Assembly: GCA_014727815.1 (NCBI GenBank)
Contig: WJMS01000257.1
Span: forward strand, 1 to 60,577
Origin: a candidate division GN15 bacterium
Lineage (GTDB): Bacteria > Zixibacteria > MSB-5A5 > GN15 > FEB-12
Direction: 5' to 3'
Length of the DNA: 60,577 nucleotides
The position numbers were made by a program, and so were the translations under genes. Shown one piece after another: positions 39,743-49,865 of the stretch (positions are counted from its first letter, which is position 1; the number at the start of each line of letters is the position of its first letter). Below the pieces are notes generated by a model that was not told where the DNA came from, did no database searches, and saw only the letters and a list, made by a program, of their open reading frames with translations.

Positions 39743-42079
39743 CTAGCCGCCCTGGTTGAATTTCCAGTTGTTGTCCAGCGATGCGATTTTGCTGCTCAGG
39801 AAACTGCCGATCGAATTCATCTGCCCGATCGCCTGCTCCATTGCGTAGAAGTCTTTTAAGAGGCGCTCGCGGCGAAGTTCGAGTCGCTGGTCGAACTCAC
39901 CGATCCGCGCGTTGAGGTTGTCGATCTGCCCCTGGACACCCTTGATCCGGACATCCAGCATGCCACTGCCCGCCTGCGACAGGCTGTCCACCGTATCGTC
40001 GAGACGCGAGGCAATCCCCTTGGCAATCGTCACGCTCCCCTCAGCGCCGTCAGTGACCTGGCTCGTGTCGAGCGTGATGCGCAACTGCAAGCCCTCGGTG
40101 GTGGCGTTGCCCTCTTTGCCTTTGAGTAGCTGCCCGGTGCCTTCGGCGGCTTCACCGTTGATCGTCCCCTCGACATCAACACCGTCCTCCGATACGCCCG
40201 TGGCCAGCCCGAGGGCGCCGGCCGCGCTGTTGGTTACCGAAGTAATGACGTTGACGCTCGATGACGACCCGTAGGTGGAACTGCTGAACGCCAGGTAGCC
40301 GGAGTCGGCGCCCGTCTCGACCCATTCGACCGTCAGGCCGCGCGTGCCGAGCTTGGCGTCGTTGTCGATCTGGTTCTGGATCTCGGTGACGAGTTCCTCG
40401 GTCGTGTCGTACGTCCGCTCGCTGAGAATGATCTCCTCAGACTCGACCCCGTCCATCGACAGCCGAAGACGATTGTTGCTGCCGTCGAGCGTCAGCGGCG
40501 TGACATACGGGCTGTCGATCGACATGCCGCGGAACTGCCCGCGCGTGGCGGCCTTCGTAATGTCGACATCAAACGCCTCCCCCACTTTCGTCCTGGCAGT
40601 GGCGGAAACGAAGCTGATGCTCTCGGTCGAACTGTTGCCGGAGTCGACAAAGAGGTTGATGACATCGTCGAGATTGTTGCGGATCGCGTTTTCGAGCGCA
40701 CTCGAATCGCGAACGGTCAGCTGCCCCTGGGCGTTGGTTCGAATACCGATCGTCGCGAGCTGGTTGTACTTGCTTTCCAGTCCGGCCACCGGGTTGGCGA
40801 TCGCCCGGCGCAACGAGTACTGCATCATCTGCACCGAGTAGTCACCCAGCAGCGTCCCGGCTTCGCCGGTGTCCGCGTTGTAGTCGTTCTGGCTGTCGAC
40901 GAATTTATTGACGTCGTTGAGCTTGGTCAGCAAGCCCTGGATCGTCTCTTTGATCGCGGCAACATCAATATCGGTCTTCAGCGAGACTGTCTCCCCCGGC
41001 GGCGTTACCTTACCGGCCGTCAGCGACAGACCCGATATGACCTGCTTGAACTCATTGGTTTCGGAAGTAATCGTAATTGGTGAGCCGCCACCGTCGGAAG
41101 ATCCAATGGCCAGACGGGCGTCGGACGCGTCCTGCAACAGCGGCGCAAACGTGCCGACCTGGAAGGTATCGCCGGCCTGTAATTGGCCCGACGAGAAAGT
41201 CAGCTTGAGCCCGTCGGCCCCCTCACCGACCAGCTCAACCTCCGTGTCTGCCTGGGTGACGACGATCGAACCGGAGTTCGTGCCGTCGGTCCAGTCGAGC
41301 ACGATATTGTCACTGCCGACCGTCTGTTGACCGGTACCGGCCACTGTGAAGGTGTACGTCTTGTTGGTCGTGCCGGTATACGCGGCGGTCGCGCCCAGGG
41401 CCAGCGTAGCGTCAGACTCGGCATCGACCGACACTGCTTCCGGGTTGTCGAAGGTGGCGGTCGTGAAGTTCAGAGACTTATCGCCGGTGAGGTTCGACTC
41501 GAGATGTATGCGGTTTTTGACGCCGGTCTTGTCGGCCGACAGGACAAGCCGATACGGATTCGATTCGGAACCGTCATTGACAATACTGGCCCGCACGCCG
41601 GCATCGGCGCTGTTGATCGCGTTTTTGATACCGGTCAGCGAGTTATTACCGGCGTCGATGGTGATGTCCGTCGTGGCGCCATCACCGACGCTGATACTAA
41701 TCGTTCCGGTACCGAACTGAGCCAGCGATTCATCGTCAAACCCCTGGCTGGCGATCTGGTGGTTTCGAGCCAGCGCCTGGACCTGGATATCGTAGGAGCC
41801 GCTGCCGACCCGCCCGGAAGCGGTAGCCGTCAGGTAGCTGTCATCGGAGACCGACACGTCCGTAGCTTCAAACGTCGTGGCCCGCGACAACGACCGGGTC
41901 TGGGTCGCCAGGGCGAGCAGTTTCGCCTGAAAGGCCTTGTAGGTCGTAACGATATTCGTCTTTTCGGCGACCTGCCGTTCCATGAGAACAGCCGGACGGC
42001 GCTCGTACTGGAGAATGGAGTTGATGATCTCGGTGGTATTGAGACCGGATGAGATTCCGTCGATCGACGTGAGTGGCAT
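39743..42079 (-). CDS. fliD: flagellar filament cap protein FliD (expanded, 778 aa)
   Basis: N-terminus ISSGLNTTEIINSILQYERRP and C-terminus RLLKDFYAMEQAIGQMNSIGSFL are FliD N/C domains. The long Thr/Ser/Gly-rich middle includes SLTGIKNAINSADAGVRASIVNDGS...YRLVLS. Confidence 0.9.
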   Translation of the reverse strand: MPLTSIDGISSGLNTTEIINSILQYERRPAVLMERQVAEKTNIVTTYKAFQAKLLALATQTRSLSRATTFEATDVSVSDDSYLTATASGRVGSGSYDIQVQALARNHQIASQGFDDESLAQFGTGTISISVGDGATTDITIDAGNNSLTGIKNAINSADAGVRASIVNDGSESNPYRLVLSADKTGVKNRIHLESNLTGDKSLNFTTATFDNPEAVSVDAESDATLALGATAAYTGTTNKTYTFTVAGTGQQTVGSDNIVLDWTDGTNSGSIVVTQADTEVELVGEGADGLKLTFSSGQLQAGDTFQVGTFAPLLQDASDARLAIGSSDGGGSPITITSETNEFKQVISGLSLTAGKVTPPGETVSLKTDIDVAAIKETIQGLLTKLNDVNKFVDSQNDYNADTGEAGTLLGDYSVQMMQYSLRRAIANPVAGLESKYNQLATIGIRTNAQGQLTVRDSSALENAIRNNLDDVINLFVDSGNSSTESISFVSATARTKVGEAFDVDITKAATRGQFRGMSIDSPYVTPLTLDGSNNRLRLSMDGVESEEIILSERTYDTTEELVTEIQNQIDNDAKLGTRGLTVEWVETGADSGYLAFSSSTYGSSSSVNVITSVTNSAAGALGLATGVSEDGVDVEGTINGEAAEGTGQLLKGKEGNATTEGLQLRITLDTSQVTDGAEGSVTIAKGIASRLDDTVDSLSQAGSGMLDVRIKGVQGQIDNLNARIGEFDQRLELRRERLLKDFYAMEQAIGQMNSIGSFLSSKIASLDNNWKFNQGG

Positions 42080-42142: not shown

Positions 42143-42173
42143 GTTCCGGAGGAGGCTGAACCTCCTCCGGAAC
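42143..42173 (-). terminator. 13 bp perfect hairpin after the flagellin gene (terminator/attenuator before fliD)
   Basis: gttccggaggagg-ctgaa-cctcctccggaac, 17 nt after the flagellin stop. On the minus strand it is followed by CGCCCTTTACA, only a weak U-tract. Confidence 0.6.
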
Positions 42174-42189: not shown

Positions 42190-44370
42190 TTAGAAGAGCG
42201 ACAGAACCGTCTGCGGAACCTGGTTGGCCTGAGCCAGCATGGCGGTGCCAGCCTGGACCAGAATCTGGTTCTTGGTGAATTCTGACATCTCTTCAGCCAT
42301 ATCGGTGTCACGAATCATCGATTCGGAGGCCGAGAGGTTCTGGGCCGCGACCCGGAGGTTACGCAAGTTGGATTCCAGCGTGTTCTTCTGGAAGCTACCG
42401 AGCGTACCGCGAGTCGTGGAAACCTCGTTGATCGCCGCATCGATAATCGTCTGGGCATCCTGAGCGCCCTGGACAGTGGTCACATCGATCTCGGAGAGCG
42501 AGCGGAACGTGTTGCCCGCAATGTTCTTACCGAGAGACGAGGCGGACATGTCGCGCACGCCGATGGAGGCCGTCTGACCGACGTTTGCGCCGATCTGGAA
42601 GACCAGCGACTGGTCGGTGTTGTTGATCGTCTCGGAACCACCGGTCGAGGTCAGACCGATGTTCAGCAGCAGCGACTCGGAGCGATCGGCGTTGTAGACG
42701 GTCGAATCGAAGCCGGCCGTCACGGACTGCGACGGGCCACCATCGAGACGGACATCGAACTTCGCCGCTTCGACATCGAGCAGCAGGTTCCCGACGTCGA
42801 TACCGGTCGAGGCCTTGGCGACGACCATATCGATCGAGCCGCGGTTGGCGTCGTCGGAATCGCCGGTGTACAGGGTCACGTTCTGCGTGGTCGCGTAGGC
42901 AACCTTGTCAATCGTGTTGGTGTAGTTGTCGAACCGGATGATCGCGTCGGTACCACGGACGGCCAGCGTGTCGTTGCTCAGGTTCAGGGCGTGACGGAGG
43001 TTACCGGTGGTGGTATCGCCGTCGTCGGCCAGGACCTGAATCGAGTAGTTGGAGCCTTCGTCCTTGGTCCGGAACTCGATCCGGTTGCTGTCGACCAGGA
43101 ACGCCTCAATATCGTTGACGCCGCCGGAAATGGTGGCGAAGGCGGTGGAGCTGGCCAGCGCCGTGTTGATATCGTCGACCAGCTGCGAGTACGACGTGTA
43201 AGTCGTGGCACTCAGCTGAATCTGGGCGTTGGTGTTGCCGTTGGCCTCGGTGTTCACGGTCAGGTTCAGACCATCATCGGAAACACCGCGCTTGGAACCC
43301 GTGGTGAAGGCGAAGTACTCAACACCGTCGGTACCACCGGAGACCTTGGTCGAGGCGCCGGTCTGGACCGAGTACTGGGCGCCGGCATTAGCGGTCTGCA
43401 GCGCGATCTCGGCGCCGGCGGTCGCGAAGACGACCTTACCGGACAGCGACGAGTTCAGGGCGACCTGGGTGTTCAGCTTGCCGACCACGTCTTCCTGCGT
43501 ATCGCTCTCGGCGATCGTGACGGTCAGGGTCTGGTTACCGGTCGGGGACTCGCCGTTCTCCTGGTAGTTGATCACGACGTTGTAGGTACCGGCGGTCGAG
43601 GCCTGCACGGCACCGGAGGTGGCGGTAGCGTTGATCGTCGCCACGGCCGAGGCGGTGTTGACCTGCAACCCGTTACCAAAGGCATCGGTCAGCGTGATCG
43701 CATCAGAGCGCTTCTTGGCGACGTCGGAGGCCTGGACCACGTCCACGTTGTGGATCTTCTCTTCCAGGTTGTACGGATCACCATCAGTGTTCTGCAGCGA
43801 CAGACCCAGCGAGGTAGTGTTCAGCGATGCGCTGGCCTCGGCGGTCTTCGTGATCGTTACCGAGTGGGTGCCGTCAGTGAGGTTCGACCGGCGGACGGTC
43901 AGTTCGGACGTGTTGGACGACGTGATCGTCGCAATGTTGTCCTTGGAGCCATCGAGGATCTTCTTGGTACCGAACTGCGTGTTGGCAGCGATACGGTCGA
44001 CGGTCTTGATGGCGTTTTCGATTTCGGCCTGGTCCGCAGCCAGCTGGTCGGCATCGTTGAAGCCTTCGTTGGCGGCGTGAATGGCCAGTTCGCGCATCGA
44101 GATCAGCAGGTTGTTGATTTCCGTCAGCGCGCCCTCAGCAGTCTGGATCATCGAGATCGATCCTTCGTTGTTCTGGATCGCGCGGTTGAGACCGGCGATC
44201 TGCGAGCGGAACTGCTCGGAGATCACCAACCCGGCCGGATCATCGGCGGCCTGGTTGATACGGAAACCGGACGACAGCTTCTGCATGGATTTGTTCATGG
44301 CAGTTGTCGTCAGTTTCAGATTGCGGTTCGCATTGATTGCCGCAATGTTGTGATTGATGCGAAGTGACAT
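42190..44370 (-). CDS. fliC: flagellin (726 aa, Hag-like termini with very large internal insertion)
   Basis: N-terminus MSLRINHNIAAINANRNL...GFRINQAADDPAGL and C-terminus IRDTDMAEEMSEFTKNQILVQAGTAMLAQANQVPQTVLSLF are near-textbook flagellin D0/D1. Confidence 0.95.
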   Translation of the reverse strand: MSLRINHNIAAINANRNLKLTTTAMNKSMQKLSSGFRINQAADDPAGLVISEQFRSQIAGLNRAIQNNEGSISMIQTAEGALTEINNLLISMRELAIHAANEGFNDADQLAADQAEIENAIKTVDRIAANTQFGTKKILDGSKDNIATITSSNTSELTVRRSNLTDGTHSVTITKTAEASASLNTTSLGLSLQNTDGDPYNLEEKIHNVDVVQASDVAKKRSDAITLTDAFGNGLQVNTASAVATINATATSGAVQASTAGTYNVVINYQENGESPTGNQTLTVTIAESDTQEDVVGKLNTQVALNSSLSGKVVFATAGAEIALQTANAGAQYSVQTGASTKVSGGTDGVEYFAFTTGSKRGVSDDGLNLTVNTEANGNTNAQIQLSATTYTSYSQLVDDINTALASSTAFATISGGVNDIEAFLVDSNRIEFRTKDEGSNYSIQVLADDGDTTTGNLRHALNLSNDTLAVRGTDAIIRFDNYTNTIDKVAYATTQNVTLYTGDSDDANRGSIDMVVAKASTGIDVGNLLLDVEAAKFDVRLDGGPSQSVTAGFDSTVYNADRSESLLLNIGLTSTGGSETINNTDQSLVFQIGANVGQTASIGVRDMSASSLGKNIAGNTFRSLSEIDVTTVQGAQDAQTIIDAAINEVSTTRGTLGSFQKNTLESNLRNLRVAAQNLSASESMIRDTDMAEEMSEFTKNQILVQAGTAMLAQANQVPQTVLSLF

Positions 44371-44574
44371 GTGGTCCTTCCTCCTTGAGTATTACTGTAA
44401 GGTTTCCTTACCCTTTTGTTTTCGTACTCCGTTTCACGGTCATGTCACTTCCTATGTCGGGGAAATCACCGGTGTCGATGGTCCTATTCACACCGCGCGT
44501 GTTGTTTATTCCTGAACACCCTCCTCTGCTACAGACCTGAATCTGTTTACCGCCTTCTTTTTATCTTATCAGTT

Positions 44575-44601
44575 TTTTCGGCATTCGCGGGCCCAACTTA
44601 A
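44575..44601 (-). promoter_or_regulatory. sigma-28-like promoter of the flagellin gene
   Basis: Minus strand: TTAAGTTGGGCCCGCGAATGCCGAAAA. That is TAAG-14 nt-GCCGAAAA, 7/8 to GCCGATAA. It implies a ~195 nt leader. Confidence 0.45.
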
Positions 44602-44641: not shown

Positions 44642-47356
44642 TCAGCCCCGCATCGGGGCGGTTTGACCGGCCTGCGCCAGGGCTGCAAGGCGTTCCTGCG
44701 CCGGCTTGAAGCCGGGGTCGAGCTGGATGATGCGACGGTAGCCCATGATCGCCGAATCCGTATGTCCCATATTGAGATAGCACTCCGACAGATGAAACAA
44801 CGCGAGCAGGTCGGCCGGATGCGAGACCAGATAACGTTCGTAATACGCCAGGGCCTGCTCGAAACGCCCCCCCTGACGGTGCAAATCACCGATAATATGG
44901 ACAATTTCTGACTGGTCTGGCGACACCGCGAGTGCATGTTCCAGCAACTCGATGGCCTCGGCCGCGCGGTCCAAACGGGCCAGGGTTAAGCCAAGATTGC
45001 GAGTCGCCGAGAAGTCCCTCGATTCCAGCCGAAGCGCCTCGCGGTAGAAGAGCTCGGCCTGGTCGAACTGTTCCGTTTTGAAATAGCAGTTGGCGAGGTC
45101 ATTGTACGTCGCAGCTGTCGCCTCCTCCGCCTCGATGAGCTGACGGTAATGAAGTGCAGCGTCCTCATAGCGTCCCAACGCAAACAGCGATTGGGCCATC
45201 GCCAGGTGCTCGTCGCTGTCGGTCGTCTCGATGTCCTTCATTCTCGAGAGCAGCTCGGCCGCCTCATCGTAGCGGCCAGATTCGCGATAAATCTCGATCA
45301 GTTTCGCCAGCGCGGTCGTGTTTTCCGGCTCGTGTTCCAGCACCTCGCGGTAGTGGCTTTCGGCCGAGCCATAGTCGCCGCGCCTAAAGGCGATGTATGC
45401 AAGGCCGAGATGGGACGACACCTCGTAAGCGCCCGCTTCGAGTTGACGGGTGAAATGTAACTCGGCTTTTTCCCAGTCATGTTCGGCCAGGAAGATCTGG
45501 CCGAGTCGCACCGCTGTCTTGAGATAGGTGGGCGACAGTCCCGCCGTTTGCAGCAGATACTTCTTCTCGCTCTCGGTATCCTCCAGTTCGTGCGCGAGGA
45601 GTGCCAGACCATAGTAGGCGGAGATGCGGCTGTCGATATGCTGCAGGATGAGCGGGTCGTGCTCTTTACTCGGCTCGTAGGCGGCCTGAGCGGCGAGATA
45701 GCCTTCGTAGGCCTCTTTCGCGTCGTCCAGTCGTGCCATGGTGCTGAGAATGTGCCCTCGAAGCAGCAGCGGGTCGAGATAGTCGGGGCGAATCTTCAGG
45801 GCGCGGTCACAGGAGTCCAGCGCCTTGTCGAACTGCTTGGTCTTGTAGTAGCACCAACCGAGCTGGTCAAGCGCCATAAGATGGAGGTGGCGACGGTTGC
45901 GGGTTGACGGATCGGTCAGTTCGACCACCCGATGGGCTGACTCCAGAAGCTGCCGCGCATCCTCGTCGTCGAAGTCGTCCTTGCCCCGAAGCAGCTGGGC
46001 GTAGTTGAAGTGAGCGAACGGATCGTTCGGGTTTTGCTCCAGTTGTTTTTCGAGCAAGGCCCGGGAGCGTTCCACCTTGCGGCGCATTTTCTCTTTCGAC
46101 AGCCCGTAACCGTAGTGCTTGAGTTTGACACCAATACGGGCCGTACGGGCATCGGCTGGCACCTGCAGTTGGTTGTGAACGATGCCATCGTAACGCAGGT
46201 TGAGCCGGCGGCGGAACAGCCGCATTGACGGCAGGAAGGTCACCTGGTCCGGTTTGTCGGTGTATACATTGAAGACATCGAGACAGACAATGTCGTAGCG
46301 TTCGTCCTTGAGGACCGGCTTTAGCCGGGGAATGTCCTCGACCACAATCTCCTCGTCGGCGTCGATGATAAACACCCAGTCACAGGTCGCCTGCTCGATA
46401 GAGTAGTTGCGATGTTTGGAGAAGTCACCTTCCCATTCCTGATGGAAGACCTTGGCGCCGAAGCTTTCGGCGATTTCGACCGTTCGGTCGGTAGAACCGG
46501 TGTCAACGATGACGATTTCATCGACCCAGTCGCGAATCGACTCGAGGCAGCCCGGCAACAGCTCTTCTTCGTTTTTGACAATCATGCAGGCCGAGACAGT
46601 CGGGCGGTCGATCAGGTCGGCCTCGAGCATCCGCAACTCCTGCACCTGTCGGCAGCTTGATAAACCGCGGCGGATGACGTCGTGCGCTTCGTCACGCCGA
46701 CTCAGGCGAGCCAGAACGCGGGCCAGGTTCAGATACGGCAGATAGTTGTGCGACAGGGCCGCGATCGACTGTTCCATCGGTTCGATCGCCTCTTCCAGGC
46801 GATTGCTGTCCATGTAAGCCGAGCCGATGATATTCAGCAGTTGCGAGCGGTGGGCGTCGGTAACGGCGAAGTCGAAGCCCGGAATCTCAGCATTACCGGA
46901 CGCTTCCAAAGCTCCGAGGTATTTCTCACCGAGTTCGATGGTGCGCTGGTGTTCGCCCATAGAGATGGCGACAAAGGCCAGGATGAAGGCAAAATCGGCC
47001 GAATCCGGCAGCAACGCGTCGCCTCGTTTGGCAGCCTGTTCGGCCTTGTCGAGTTGACCGAGCGCGGCAAAGCCGAAGGCGAGCAGGCGGTCGTAATGTA
47101 CTCGCTGGCGCTTGTCCGGGAACGGATACTTCGGCTCCAGCGGCACGATCGCTTCGGGGATCTTGTCGTGCTGGAAAGCGGTCAGATAATAGGTGCCGAG
47201 CGCCAGCCGCGCGGATATATCATCGGGATCCCGTCGTACACGAACCAGCAATTCATCGAGGCTGACCGCCCGGGGCCGCGATTGGACATCAGTTCGCGCT
47301 GTGCGGGGAGATTTTTTCTTTTTGCGTTTGGCCTGTTTGCGGGATGTTCCAGCCAT
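44642..47356 (-). CDS. TPR - family-2 glycosyltransferase - TPR protein (candidate flagellin glycosyltransferase)
   Basis: 904 aa. The central GT2 core is VSACMIVKNEEELLPGCLESI...IVDTGSTDRT...FIIDADEE (DxD), flanked on both sides by multiple TPRs. Located between fliW and the flagellin gene. Confidence 0.85.
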   Translation of the reverse strand: MAGTSRKQAKRKKKKSPRTARTDVQSRPRAVSLDELLVRVRRDPDDISARLALGTYYLTAFQHDKIPEAIVPLEPKYPFPDKRQRVHYDRLLAFGFAALGQLDKAEQAAKRGDALLPDSADFAFILAFVAISMGEHQRTIELGEKYLGALEASGNAEIPGFDFAVTDAHRSQLLNIIGSAYMDSNRLEEAIEPMEQSIAALSHNYLPYLNLARVLARLSRRDEAHDVIRRGLSSCRQVQELRMLEADLIDRPTVSACMIVKNEEELLPGCLESIRDWVDEIVIVDTGSTDRTVEIAESFGAKVFHQEWEGDFSKHRNYSIEQATCDWVFIIDADEEIVVEDIPRLKPVLKDERYDIVCLDVFNVYTDKPDQVTFLPSMRLFRRRLNLRYDGIVHNQLQVPADARTARIGVKLKHYGYGLSKEKMRRKVERSRALLEKQLEQNPNDPFAHFNYAQLLRGKDDFDDEDARQLLESAHRVVELTDPSTRNRRHLHLMALDQLGWCYYKTKQFDKALDSCDRALKIRPDYLDPLLLRGHILSTMARLDDAKEAYEGYLAAQAAYEPSKEHDPLILQHIDSRISAYYGLALLAHELEDTESEKKYLLQTAGLSPTYLKTAVRLGQIFLAEHDWEKAELHFTRQLEAGAYEVSSHLGLAYIAFRRGDYGSAESHYREVLEHEPENTTALAKLIEIYRESGRYDEAAELLSRMKDIETTDSDEHLAMAQSLFALGRYEDAALHYRQLIEAEEATAATYNDLANCYFKTEQFDQAELFYREALRLESRDFSATRNLGLTLARLDRAAEAIELLEHALAVSPDQSEIVHIIGDLHRQGGRFEQALAYYERYLVSHPADLLALFHLSECYLNMGHTDSAIMGYRRIIQLDPGFKPAQERLAALAQAGQTAPMRG

Positions 47357-47924: not shown

Positions 47925-49865
47925 TTACCGGCTCAGGAAGTCCAGCAGGCTGGGTTGTATGATTTTGGCGCTGGCGAGCAACGCCGACTGATAATTGGCT
48001 TCATGGGTTGACAGTTTCGTCAGCACTTCGGTGATATCCGCGTCTTCAACCTCGGACAGCAGCCGGGTGAAGCTCAGCTCCTGGTCAACCAGGCGGGTGT
48101 CAGTAGTCTCCAGACGAACCGTTCTGGTACCGACCGTGCCCCGAACATCGAGCAATTCCTGGATACTCCGATCGAGCGGCTCAAGCAGGATACCGGCACC
48201 CTCTCGGTCGTTGTTTTCAAGGGCATTGCCGAGCATGATCAGGGTTCCAATCATGTCGGTAGAGCCGTAGATGCCAAGATCCTTGGCGGCGTCGCTGTTG
48301 CCGACATCCTCGATCGTCAGTGATCGGTTCGGGTCGTTATTCTCAATTTGAATACCGGTGCCGTTGGCGTTGATCGACGCCACGATATCGACACTGGCAC
48401 TGTTGAGCCGATCAAGTACATCCTGTATGGTAGTTATGGTCGGATCGTCGAGGTCGAGGACGAAATTGCGTTCGCCCTGCCAGATACTTATCTCGCCGCG
48501 GTTGAAGTCGTTGCCCGTATTCAGGTCGGCCAGCAGGCTGTCGGCGGTGAGCAACGGATCGAGGTCATCGCCGGGCTGGTCGACGTAAAACGTCTTGAGC
48601 AACCCGAGATCCTCGGCAGTACTGCCGCCGTTTTCGGCGACCTCAAAGGAAACGCCGGGATTGAGATCGGCGCCGACCAGCTGCGCGCCGATCGAGCCGG
48701 CAATGCCCAGTTGCTGAGCGATATTGTAGTTGTCCGGCGGGTCTTCGATCTGCAAACCGATTGGCGGCAGGTTGGTATCATCAATCTGCAGACCGGTGCT
48801 GGCAGCGTTCAGACTCATCGAGACGTTGTTCAGTTCCGGGTGGGCCACGGCAGCCGCCGTCAGGGCATCGTTGAACAACGTAATCACATCATCGATCGTC
48901 TCGGCCGAGGAAACATCGATCGGCACATCGATCGCGCCACCGTCAAACAGCCGGAACGTACCCGGTTCGAGAATGACGCCGGCGCCGTCATGCAGCCGAT
49001 CCAGCTTGGTATCGCCGGTGATTTGCCCGCTGGGGGTGGTGTTCCAGAGGATGTTGTTACCCTCAGGCGAGAGCTCGGCCACCACATCGGTAATGCCGGC
49101 GGCGGCCAGATCGGCATTGATCTGCGTGATCGCCTGGTCGATAGTCGTGATCGCCGGGTCGCTCAGGTCGATCGTGGCGGTAACATTCAGGTTGTGATCG
49201 GTGACGGTGAAGCCGGCGGCCTGGTCGATGCCATCACCACGGTGCAGGTCGACCAGCAGCGTGCCGGCGGACACACCCACATTCAAGTCGGCCTCTTCGC
49301 CGATAACTCCGATCTGCTTGAGGAAAACTTCAGTGCCGGGCAGGTTGATGCTCAACCGCTGGCTGTTGTCGACTTCGAATTCGATAGCGCCGTCATTGCC
49401 CTCATAGACCGCACCCGTTCCGGTTATATTGAACGGCGTGGTACGAGTCCGAAAGCCTGCGAATATCGAGCGATCCTCGAGCTTGGTGTTCGCCAGCGTC
49501 GTGATCTGGTCTATCAATGAGCGGACCTGACTGGCCGAGGCTTCGCGGGCGATATCGTCGTACGTGTCGTTCGACATCGCCACCGCCATCTCCTTGGCCT
49601 CGGAGACGAAGTTTTTCACGTCGCTCAGGACCTGATCGTACGTGGCTGTCCAGGTCATCGCCTGGCTGATATTCTTGCGGAACTGCTCGATCTTGGCCAG
49701 TTCGGTGCGGTAGTTGAGATCGCGCAGCGTGCCGGAAGGGTCGTCCGATGGTTTGTTGATGCGCCGTCCTGAAGACATCTGCGTCTCCAGGTCGAAAAAG
49801 CGCTGCAGCGAACGTTGCATGTTGAACACGACCTGGTTCTGGATCATGTTGTTGGTAACACGCAT
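47925..49865 (-). CDS. flgL: flagellar hook-associated protein 3 FlgL (expanded, 646 aa)
   Basis: N-terminus MRVTNNMIQNQVVFNMQRSLQR...GRRINKPSDDPSG and C-terminus ITEVLTKLSTHEANYQSALLASAKIIQPSLLDFL are flagellin-like HAP3 ends. The ~330 aa middle contains three related repeats. Confidence 0.85.
   Translation of the reverse strand: MRVTNNMIQNQVVFNMQRSLQRFFDLETQMSSGRRINKPSDDPSGTLRDLNYRTELAKIEQFRKNISQAMTWTATYDQVLSDVKNFVSEAKEMAVAMSNDTYDDIAREASASQVRSLIDQITTLANTKLEDRSIFAGFRTRTTPFNITGTGAVYEGNDGAIEFEVDNSQRLSINLPGTEVFLKQIGVIGEEADLNVGVSAGTLLVDLHRGDGIDQAAGFTVTDHNLNVTATIDLSDPAITTIDQAITQINADLAAAGITDVVAELSPEGNNILWNTTPSGQITGDTKLDRLHDGAGVILEPGTFRLFDGGAIDVPIDVSSAETIDDVITLFNDALTAAAVAHPELNNVSMSLNAASTGLQIDDTNLPPIGLQIEDPPDNYNIAQQLGIAGSIGAQLVGADLNPGVSFEVAENGGSTAEDLGLLKTFYVDQPGDDLDPLLTADSLLADLNTGNDFNRGEISIWQGERNFVLDLDDPTITTIQDVLDRLNSASVDIVASINANGTGIQIENNDPNRSLTIEDVGNSDAAKDLGIYGSTDMIGTLIMLGNALENNDREGAGILLEPLDRSIQELLDVRGTVGTRTVRLETTDTRLVDQELSFTRLLSEVEDADITEVLTKLSTHEANYQSALLASAKIIQPSLLDFLSR

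Follow-up and report, generated by a model that had tools for sequence, protein, structure and literature searches.

We analysed a 60,577-nucleotide contig (WJMS01000257.1 of GenBank assembly GCA_014727815.1; this whole stretch is referred to as the window) from an uncultured candidate division GN15 bacterium of the phylum Zixibacteria. The window carries a flagellin gene, flanked by a gene for a protein with tetratricopeptide repeats (TPR) and a family-2 glycosyltransferase domain and by fliD (Table 1). The encoded flagellin has a core resembling that of Bacillus subtilis Hag, and a large outer-domain block is inserted between the end of its N-terminal core and the β-hairpin of domain D1. Here we describe the position, predicted fold and conservation of this block and the distribution of its insertion site among flagellins.

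Table 1. Features of the flagellin locus, with positions in the window (aa, amino acids; HMM, hidden Markov model)
Feature	Position	Strand	Evidence
Flagellin gene	42190..44370	(-)	Open reading frame and translation, 726 aa plus stop; Pfam Flagellin_N and Flagellin_C
N-terminal core, aa 1-141 (helices ND0, ND1a and ND1b, with FGTKKILDG at the end)	43948..44370	(-)	Pfam; model helices
Outer-domain block, aa 142-588, 447 aa, beta-rich	42607..43947	(-)	PDB alignment, motif positions, model
D1 beta-hairpin region, aa 589-614, LVFQIGANVGQTASIGVRDMSASSLG	42529..42606	(-)	Hag alignment, hairpin HMM, model strands
Short linker, aa 615-634, at the textbook post-hairpin variable site	42469..42528	(-)	Anchor HMM gap of 20 aa
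C-terminal core, aa 635-726: CD1 and CD0 helix	42193..42468	(-)	Pfam Flagellin_C, model helix
Putative sigma-28-like promoter, TTAAG-N14-GCCGAAAA, 5' of the flagellin gene	44575..44601	(-)	Read from sequence
Ribosome-binding site of the flagellin gene, AGGAGG	44380-44385	(-)	Read from sequence; strong
G+C-rich inverted repeat, CCGGAGGAGG ttcag CCTCCTCCGG	42146..42170	(-)	20 nt past the flagellin stop codon
fliD (cap protein), 778 aa, enlarged; neighbour	39743..42079	(-)	Pfam FliD_N and FliD_C
TPR / family-2 glycosyltransferase / TPR protein, 904 aa; neighbour	44642..47356	(-)	Pfam TPR families; Glycos_transf_2 at 255-374
flgL (hook-filament junction protein), 646 aa, enlarged	47925..49865	(-)	NCBIfam FlgL equivalog

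Both termini of the protein identify it as a flagellin: Flagellin_N (PF00669) matched residues 5-143 with 122.6 bits (cut-off 26.6), and Flagellin_C (PF00700) matched residues 642-726 with 87.7 bits (cut-off 23). The top NCBIfam model, 'flagellin Hag' (NF009446), scored 247.7 bits, which is below its curated cut-off of 352; the 447-residue insert splits the match. The closest core by sequence among the Protein Data Bank (PDB) chains was that of B. subtilis Hag (phmmer, E 1e-60, ~50% identity over the aligned core). The flagellin scored 63.5 bits against the FlgL equivalog TIGR02550, below the cut-off of 127.2, whereas the neighbouring 646-residue protein passed it with 266.6 bits. Searching all 3.7 Mb of the assembly revealed no second full flagellin, just FlgL and a small flagellin-like gene of 258 amino acids. 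This small gene (L002, 1462-2238, plus strand, contig C16 of the same genome) adjoins ftsZ, away from the flagellar locus; its product has a Flagellin_N match of 72.9 bits, a weak Flagellin_C match and a divergent N-terminus, and lacks the β-hairpin, ND1b entering the C-terminal helix after ~25 residues. Thr, Ala, Ser and Asn are abundant in the outer block of the main flagellin, and Cys and Trp are absent from the whole protein. The original prediction had called the protein a giant flagellin, a term that does not apply at 726 residues, as giant flagellins are defined as exceeding 1000 amino acids (Thomson et al. 2018, PMC6248924). It resembles the giant flagellins of Bermanella and Oleibacter (PMC6248924) in being enlarged and in the thick filaments expected of it, but those are gammaproteobacterial and longer than 1000 residues.

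The position of the block was determined from sequence motifs, alignments to solved flagellins and HMMs. FGTKKILDG occupies residues 133-141, LVFQIGAN residues 589-596 and SASSLG residues 609-614, so that exactly 447 residues separate the first two motifs, close to the ~445 originally proposed. In a phmmer search of all PDB chains, the alignment to Hag was split, residues 3-153 pairing with Hag 1-151 and residues 586-725 with Hag 152-302 (102 bits). The alignment breaks at Hag 151/152, and the extra block therefore lies in the short loop between ND1b and the hairpin, before Hag's own LVFQIGAN hairpin. ND0/ND1, hairpin and CD1/CD0 all align with Hag (PDB 5WJT-5WJZ), including the motifs FxxKKxLDG and LVFQIGAN; in contrast to the 447 residues found here, Hag has ~10 residues at this point and no outer domains. 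Three anchor HMMs, built from short relatives, covered the N-terminal core as far as LLDG, the hairpin and the C-terminal core. By these models the hairpin is preceded by 447 residues and followed by 20, and the hairpin HMM gave one match (45.9 bits), with no second hairpin-like match after ND1b. The stretch between the hairpin and the C-terminal helix, the canonical variable site, measures 18-20 residues by the anchor HMMs and the structural model; it is indeed short, as had been predicted, if shorter than the estimated ~25.

Named PLSDB records served as controls for the anchor HMMs. Post-hairpin insertions were recovered in Salmonella (3/232 residues before/after the hairpin), Cupriavidus (4/136), Campylobacter (4/310) and Proteus (4/104), and a pre-hairpin insertion in a Clostridia flagellin of Acetoanaerobium (156 before, 10 after). 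The Salmonella record, a FliC/FljB flagellin, bears out the reference spacing given in the original prediction.

A full-length AlphaFold2 model built with 150 homologues had a mean predicted local distance difference test score (pLDDT) of 87, with most of the outer block above 90. The core helices span residues 9-33, 45-102 and 107-130 (ND0, ND1a and ND1b), and the C-terminal helix spans 633-725. The outer region, 145-586, is β-rich with short helices at 292-305, 394-406 and 458-461. The hairpin strands fall at 589-592 and 600-603, and residues 604-632 have no regular structure save one short turn. Foldseek superposed the full model on core-only flagellins of Roseburia hominis (9HPZ; template modelling score (TM-score) 0.82, root-mean-square deviation 3.7 Å) and Kurthia (6T17; TM-score 0.79), both scores being normalised by target length; such superposition is expected only with the whole D0/D1 core, hairpin included, in place. 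The Hag alignment and the model together support the assignment of LVFQIGAN as the D1 β-hairpin, as originally proposed, and the exit of the outer block from the ND1b-to-hairpin loop.

The insert modelled on its own gave a pLDDT of 88.8 and a predicted TM-score of 0.78. Its 17 top PDB matches by Foldseek were all chains of the FliD cap protein, mostly the D2-D3 head domains, with E 1e-5 to 3e-3, probability nearly all 0.94-1.0 and sequence identity of 7-12%. Helicobacter, E. coli and Salmonella are among their source organisms, and a Serratia head ranked 38th. FliD heads were the sole significant fold matches of the block, with E 1e-5 to 1e-3 and probability 0.98-1.0 for the D2-D3 domains. In its predicted fold the outer block may resemble FliD heads D2-D3 (6IWY, 6SIH, 5H5V, 5H5W, 5H5T, 5XLK); FliD is a different protein with different terminal helices. 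At the sequence level, the insert had no Pfam match of any family, and its matches to PDB sequences were at chance level (polyketide synthase, 6-phosphogluconate dehydrogenase). Several of its segments had been likened to the Flagellin_IN motif. This family assignment fails: PF07196 matched nowhere in the whole protein at E <= 0.1 and nowhere in the insert at E <= 10, and the FlgL of this genome gave a chance-level match (E 1.5). The segments in question coincide with helices 292-305 and 394-406, and the predicted resemblance of these helix-bearing modules to FliD heads lends some support to a likeness to hook-associated proteins at the level of fold only. Comparison with the genome's own proteins aligned a strand-helix-strand module of the flagellin (366-474) with FliD 532-639 (BLASTP E 0.032, hhalign probability 9%) and with FlgL 221-280 (BLASTP E 0.8). 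These values are too weak to claim homology of the insert to either protein; an outer module may be common to all three.

We compared the architecture with solved flagellins by searching the PDB with an insert-deleted version of the protein. Among the 60 flagellin chains listed in the matches, 59 matched straight from ND1 through the hairpin, including those of Salmonella, E. coli, Pseudomonas, Campylobacter, Helicobacter, Vibrio, Legionella, Stenotrophomonas and Cupriavidus; 9au6_A alone stopped at the helix end, at residue 142. The flagellins of Salmonella and other Proteobacteria and of campylobacteria (1UCU, 3A5X, 8SUG, 6X80, 9YH1) share with the zixibacterial protein a D0/D1 core with outer domains nested in D1, but place those domains after the hairpin, with 3-4 residues before it and 104-310 after.

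PDB 9AU6 is the 793-residue flagellin of Geovibrio thiophilus, solved by cryo-electron microscopy (Fields et al. 2024, Nat Commun, PMC11532411). It was also the best structural match of our full model (Foldseek E 2.3e-27), ten orders of magnitude above the next flagellin. Neither the hairpin segment of our flagellin nor a 796-residue metagenomic relative matched the 9AU6 hairpin, 9AU6 being too divergent in this region. A homologue from Synergistaceae that aligns with 9AU6 396-695 revealed it as MEMQIGANEGQTILANIPQVDTTSLGI at ~664-692 of 793; the motif MEMQIGANEGQ lies at about residue 664, past the outer domains and ~100 residues from the C-terminus. 9AU6 and the zixibacterial flagellin therefore share outer domains between ND1b (ending at ~142) and the hairpin, and a short linker after it. 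The authors relate some of the 9AU6 outer domains to hook-associated proteins, FliD among them (PMC11532411), and the zixibacterial block likewise has FliD heads as its best fold matches. The two proteins differ in host phylum (Deferribacterota and Zixibacteria), and their outer regions have no detectable sequence similarity, with no match at E <= 10; the 9AU6 outer domains D2-D5 show no homology to the block by this test, and 9AU6 lies outside the insert's 50 best fold matches. The insertion site is not discussed in the 9AU6 report, from which the word 'hairpin' is absent; for clustering, its authors cut off a constant 163 residues at the N-terminus and 100 at the C-terminus as D0/D1 (PMC11532411).

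To place the site more broadly, 1.84 billion cluster representatives (50% level) were searched exhaustively with HMMER, and the best 150 of 36,890 flagellin-family matches were taken. Under a strict hairpin criterion, 116 of these 150 insert only before the hairpin (63-588 residues, median 238), 2 only after it and 8 are core-only, the remainder being 15 unclassified sequences and 9 fragments; the pre-hairpin site thus accounts for 116 of the 126 classifiable representatives. One genome per species of the Genome Taxonomy Database (GTDB) was scanned with a 27-sequence alignment as query. Among the 80 named loci, 47 were pre-hairpin and none post-hairpin; with a relaxed hairpin cut-off, two Nocardioides genes alone became post-hairpin. 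The pre-hairpin loci belong to Zixibacteria, Omnitrophota, SAR324, Armatimonadota, Planctomycetota, Actinomycetota (Actinoplanes and relatives), Thermotogota, Bacillota (Lachnospiraceae, Eubacterium, Anoxybacillus), Synergistaceae, Chitinispirillales and candidate division WS1. In a tree built from the helical core alone, insertion sites group by clade: post-hairpin genes of Proteobacteria make up a single long-branched group and those of Nocardioides another, with core-only flagellins dispersed among the pre-hairpin ones.

Among flagellins with a Hag-like core and outer domains, including those of Bacillota, Synergistota and Fibrobacterota, most use the pre-hairpin site, and the post-hairpin site is the typical one in Pseudomonadota and Campylobacterota. 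Tentatively, and with slightly less than even confidence, we extend this to a general pattern in which the pre-hairpin site prevails in most phyla, the post-hairpin site is largely confined to Pseudomonadota and Campylobacterota with occasional users such as Nocardioides, and Zixibacteria are an extreme case with a single FliD-like block of 447 residues retained throughout the phylum. This split is apparently unstated in the searchable literature. The flagellinolysin model NF033876 aligns over its last 63 positions (322-384) with residues 579-657 of the flagellin, that is, the hairpin and the start of CD1; by this alignment, proteolytic flagellins may likewise carry their HExxH protease domain ahead of the hairpin. 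The SAR324 genome G208, which holds locus L026, has 15 Flagellin_N matches in frames of 278-631 residues, many in tandem on few contigs, an unusually large flagellin gene family.

The insert is conserved across the phylum. It was found in 162 of 201 zixibacterial genomes and 92 of 108 genera, mostly with one match per genome; the reading frames that bear it are mostly 720-775 residues long, and the inserts are 37-84% identical. An artefact or a mobile insertion is ruled out, the insert being in frame and conserved in these 162 genomes. More than 120 full-length homologues (704-741 residues, 61-89% identity) were recovered, the named ones mostly labelled Zixibacteria, GN15 or FCB group, which identifies the organism as a Zixibacterium. 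Mean identity to 122 orthologues was 86% for the N-terminal core, 89% for the C-terminal core and 54% for the insert, and within the insert the ends (60-62%) exceeded the middle (40-47%), the pattern expected if the ends form a D1-proximal domain and the middle is most exposed. Within a flagellin it is usually the outer domains that evolve fastest, and enterobacterial flagellins are hypervariable there. Retention of one outer block throughout a phylum suggests a constrained role. Since the 447-residue block is kept across most genera at 37-84% identity, the data argue against antigenic drift and for a structural or ecological constraint, for example a lattice on the outside, attachment to surfaces or protection.

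The analysis also bears on the naming of some metagenome-assembled genomes. Three labelled Ignavibacteriales (L004, L005, L006) carry a Zixibacteria-type flagellin (62-67% identity) that the core tree places within the Zixibacteria clade, and one labelled Alcaligenaceae (L070) carries a planctomycete-type flagellin, and the genomes sampled from its GTDB phylum look planctomycete-like. The deposited names of all four are probably wrong.

Taking these results together, we put at about 0.9 the probability that the gene encodes the filament subunit of this uncultured Zixibacterium, a flagellin whose Hag-like core would assemble into a filament and whose outer block precedes the hairpin. It might instead be a specialised member of the family that acts at the junction or near the cap, or is secreted as an adhesin through the flagellar system; the enlarged cap and junction proteins of the locus and the 258-residue gene elsewhere in the genome would fit such a role. 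However, a separate FlgL passes the equivalog cut-off that the flagellin fails, the core is conserved at 86-89% across the phylum and ~50% identical to Hag over its aligned length, and the gene sits between a putative sigma-28-like promoter and fliD. The 258-residue paralogue, with no hairpin and a divergent N-terminus, is the poorer filament candidate. We regard a specialised role as improbable.

The assignment of the insertion site was weighed against two opposite readings. LVFQIGAN is a short motif that could in principle recur by chance, in which case it would not be the D1 hairpin and the block would occupy the standard D2/D3 position; no other support for this was found. The Hag alignment runs unbroken from the hairpin to the C-terminus, the protein has a single hairpin HMM match and none further on, and the model shows a two-strand hairpin there with just 20 residues left before the C-terminal helix, so that we give the coincidence next to no credence. 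Conversely, the site could be a new topology absent from every characterised flagellin, given that in 59 of the 60 PDB chains listed the hairpin follows immediately on ND1b, that the pre-hairpin site goes unmentioned in searchable reviews and surveys, and that one survey cuts the core at fixed residues. The 9AU6 alignment refutes this, and the site is shared by the large majority of the classifiable cluster representatives and by named genomes from at least 10 phyla; complete novelty is very unlikely. The prediction that the outer domains leave D1 by a different loop therefore holds against Salmonella-type flagellins but not against all characterised ones. The insertion site already has a precedent in a solved flagellin and differs from that of Salmonella, Pseudomonas and Campylobacter.

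Several points weigh against the account of a filament protein with a FliD-like block at a widespread site. The 15 unclassified representatives and a further 16 GTDB loci have long middle regions without a detectable hairpin, and both surveys started from core relatives, so that the pre-hairpin group is over-sampled and the counts show breadth, not frequency. The TM-scores of the FliD-like fold are low (0.15-0.44), because several domains of differing relative orientation are compared together. The packing of the hairpin on ND1/CD1 and the domain boundaries of the outer block are judged from secondary structure and from Foldseek scores, and the organism is uncultured.

The putative promoter was assigned by comparison with the sigma-28 consensus, and the inverted repeat 3' of the gene is likely a terminator, though without a clear T run. 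FliD and FlgL are both far above their usual size. The 904-residue protein encoded directly upstream of the Ser/Thr-rich flagellin has its family-2 glycosyltransferase core between long TPR arrays. From its position, it is a candidate flagellin glycosyltransferase, and O-glycosylation of the flagellin is plausible.

Core conservation and the context of the locus suggest that the protein would polymerise into a flagellar filament. In the mechanism we propose, the helices at the N- and C-termini form a Hag-like D0/D1 core that would polymerise into the usual 11-protofilament tube. The β-rich, multi-domain block, parts of which are predicted to fold like FliD D2-D3 heads, leaves this core from the ND1b-to-hairpin loop, and the chain then returns to the hairpin, the 20-residue linker and the C-terminal helix. 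Projecting from another D1 loop than in Salmonella-type flagellins, the outer domains would coat and thicken the filament, and they may stiffen it, interact with surfaces or shield it.

Taken alone, this is an ordinary flagellin of an uncultured phylum, with an architecture of which a solved example already exists; its distinctive point is the conservation of one insert across the phylum. More generally, the pre-hairpin site seems to be usual outside Proteobacteria and to have gone unremarked. If so, surveys that cut D0/D1 at fixed residues would count the hairpin as outer domain, and the orientation of outer domains on the filament would be affected. The survey indicates that the point where outer domains emerge from D1 is a lineage trait, and that the model organisms show one of two solutions, which is relevant to domain-trimming rules in structural surveys and to the design of flagellin display scaffolds on Hag-type cores.

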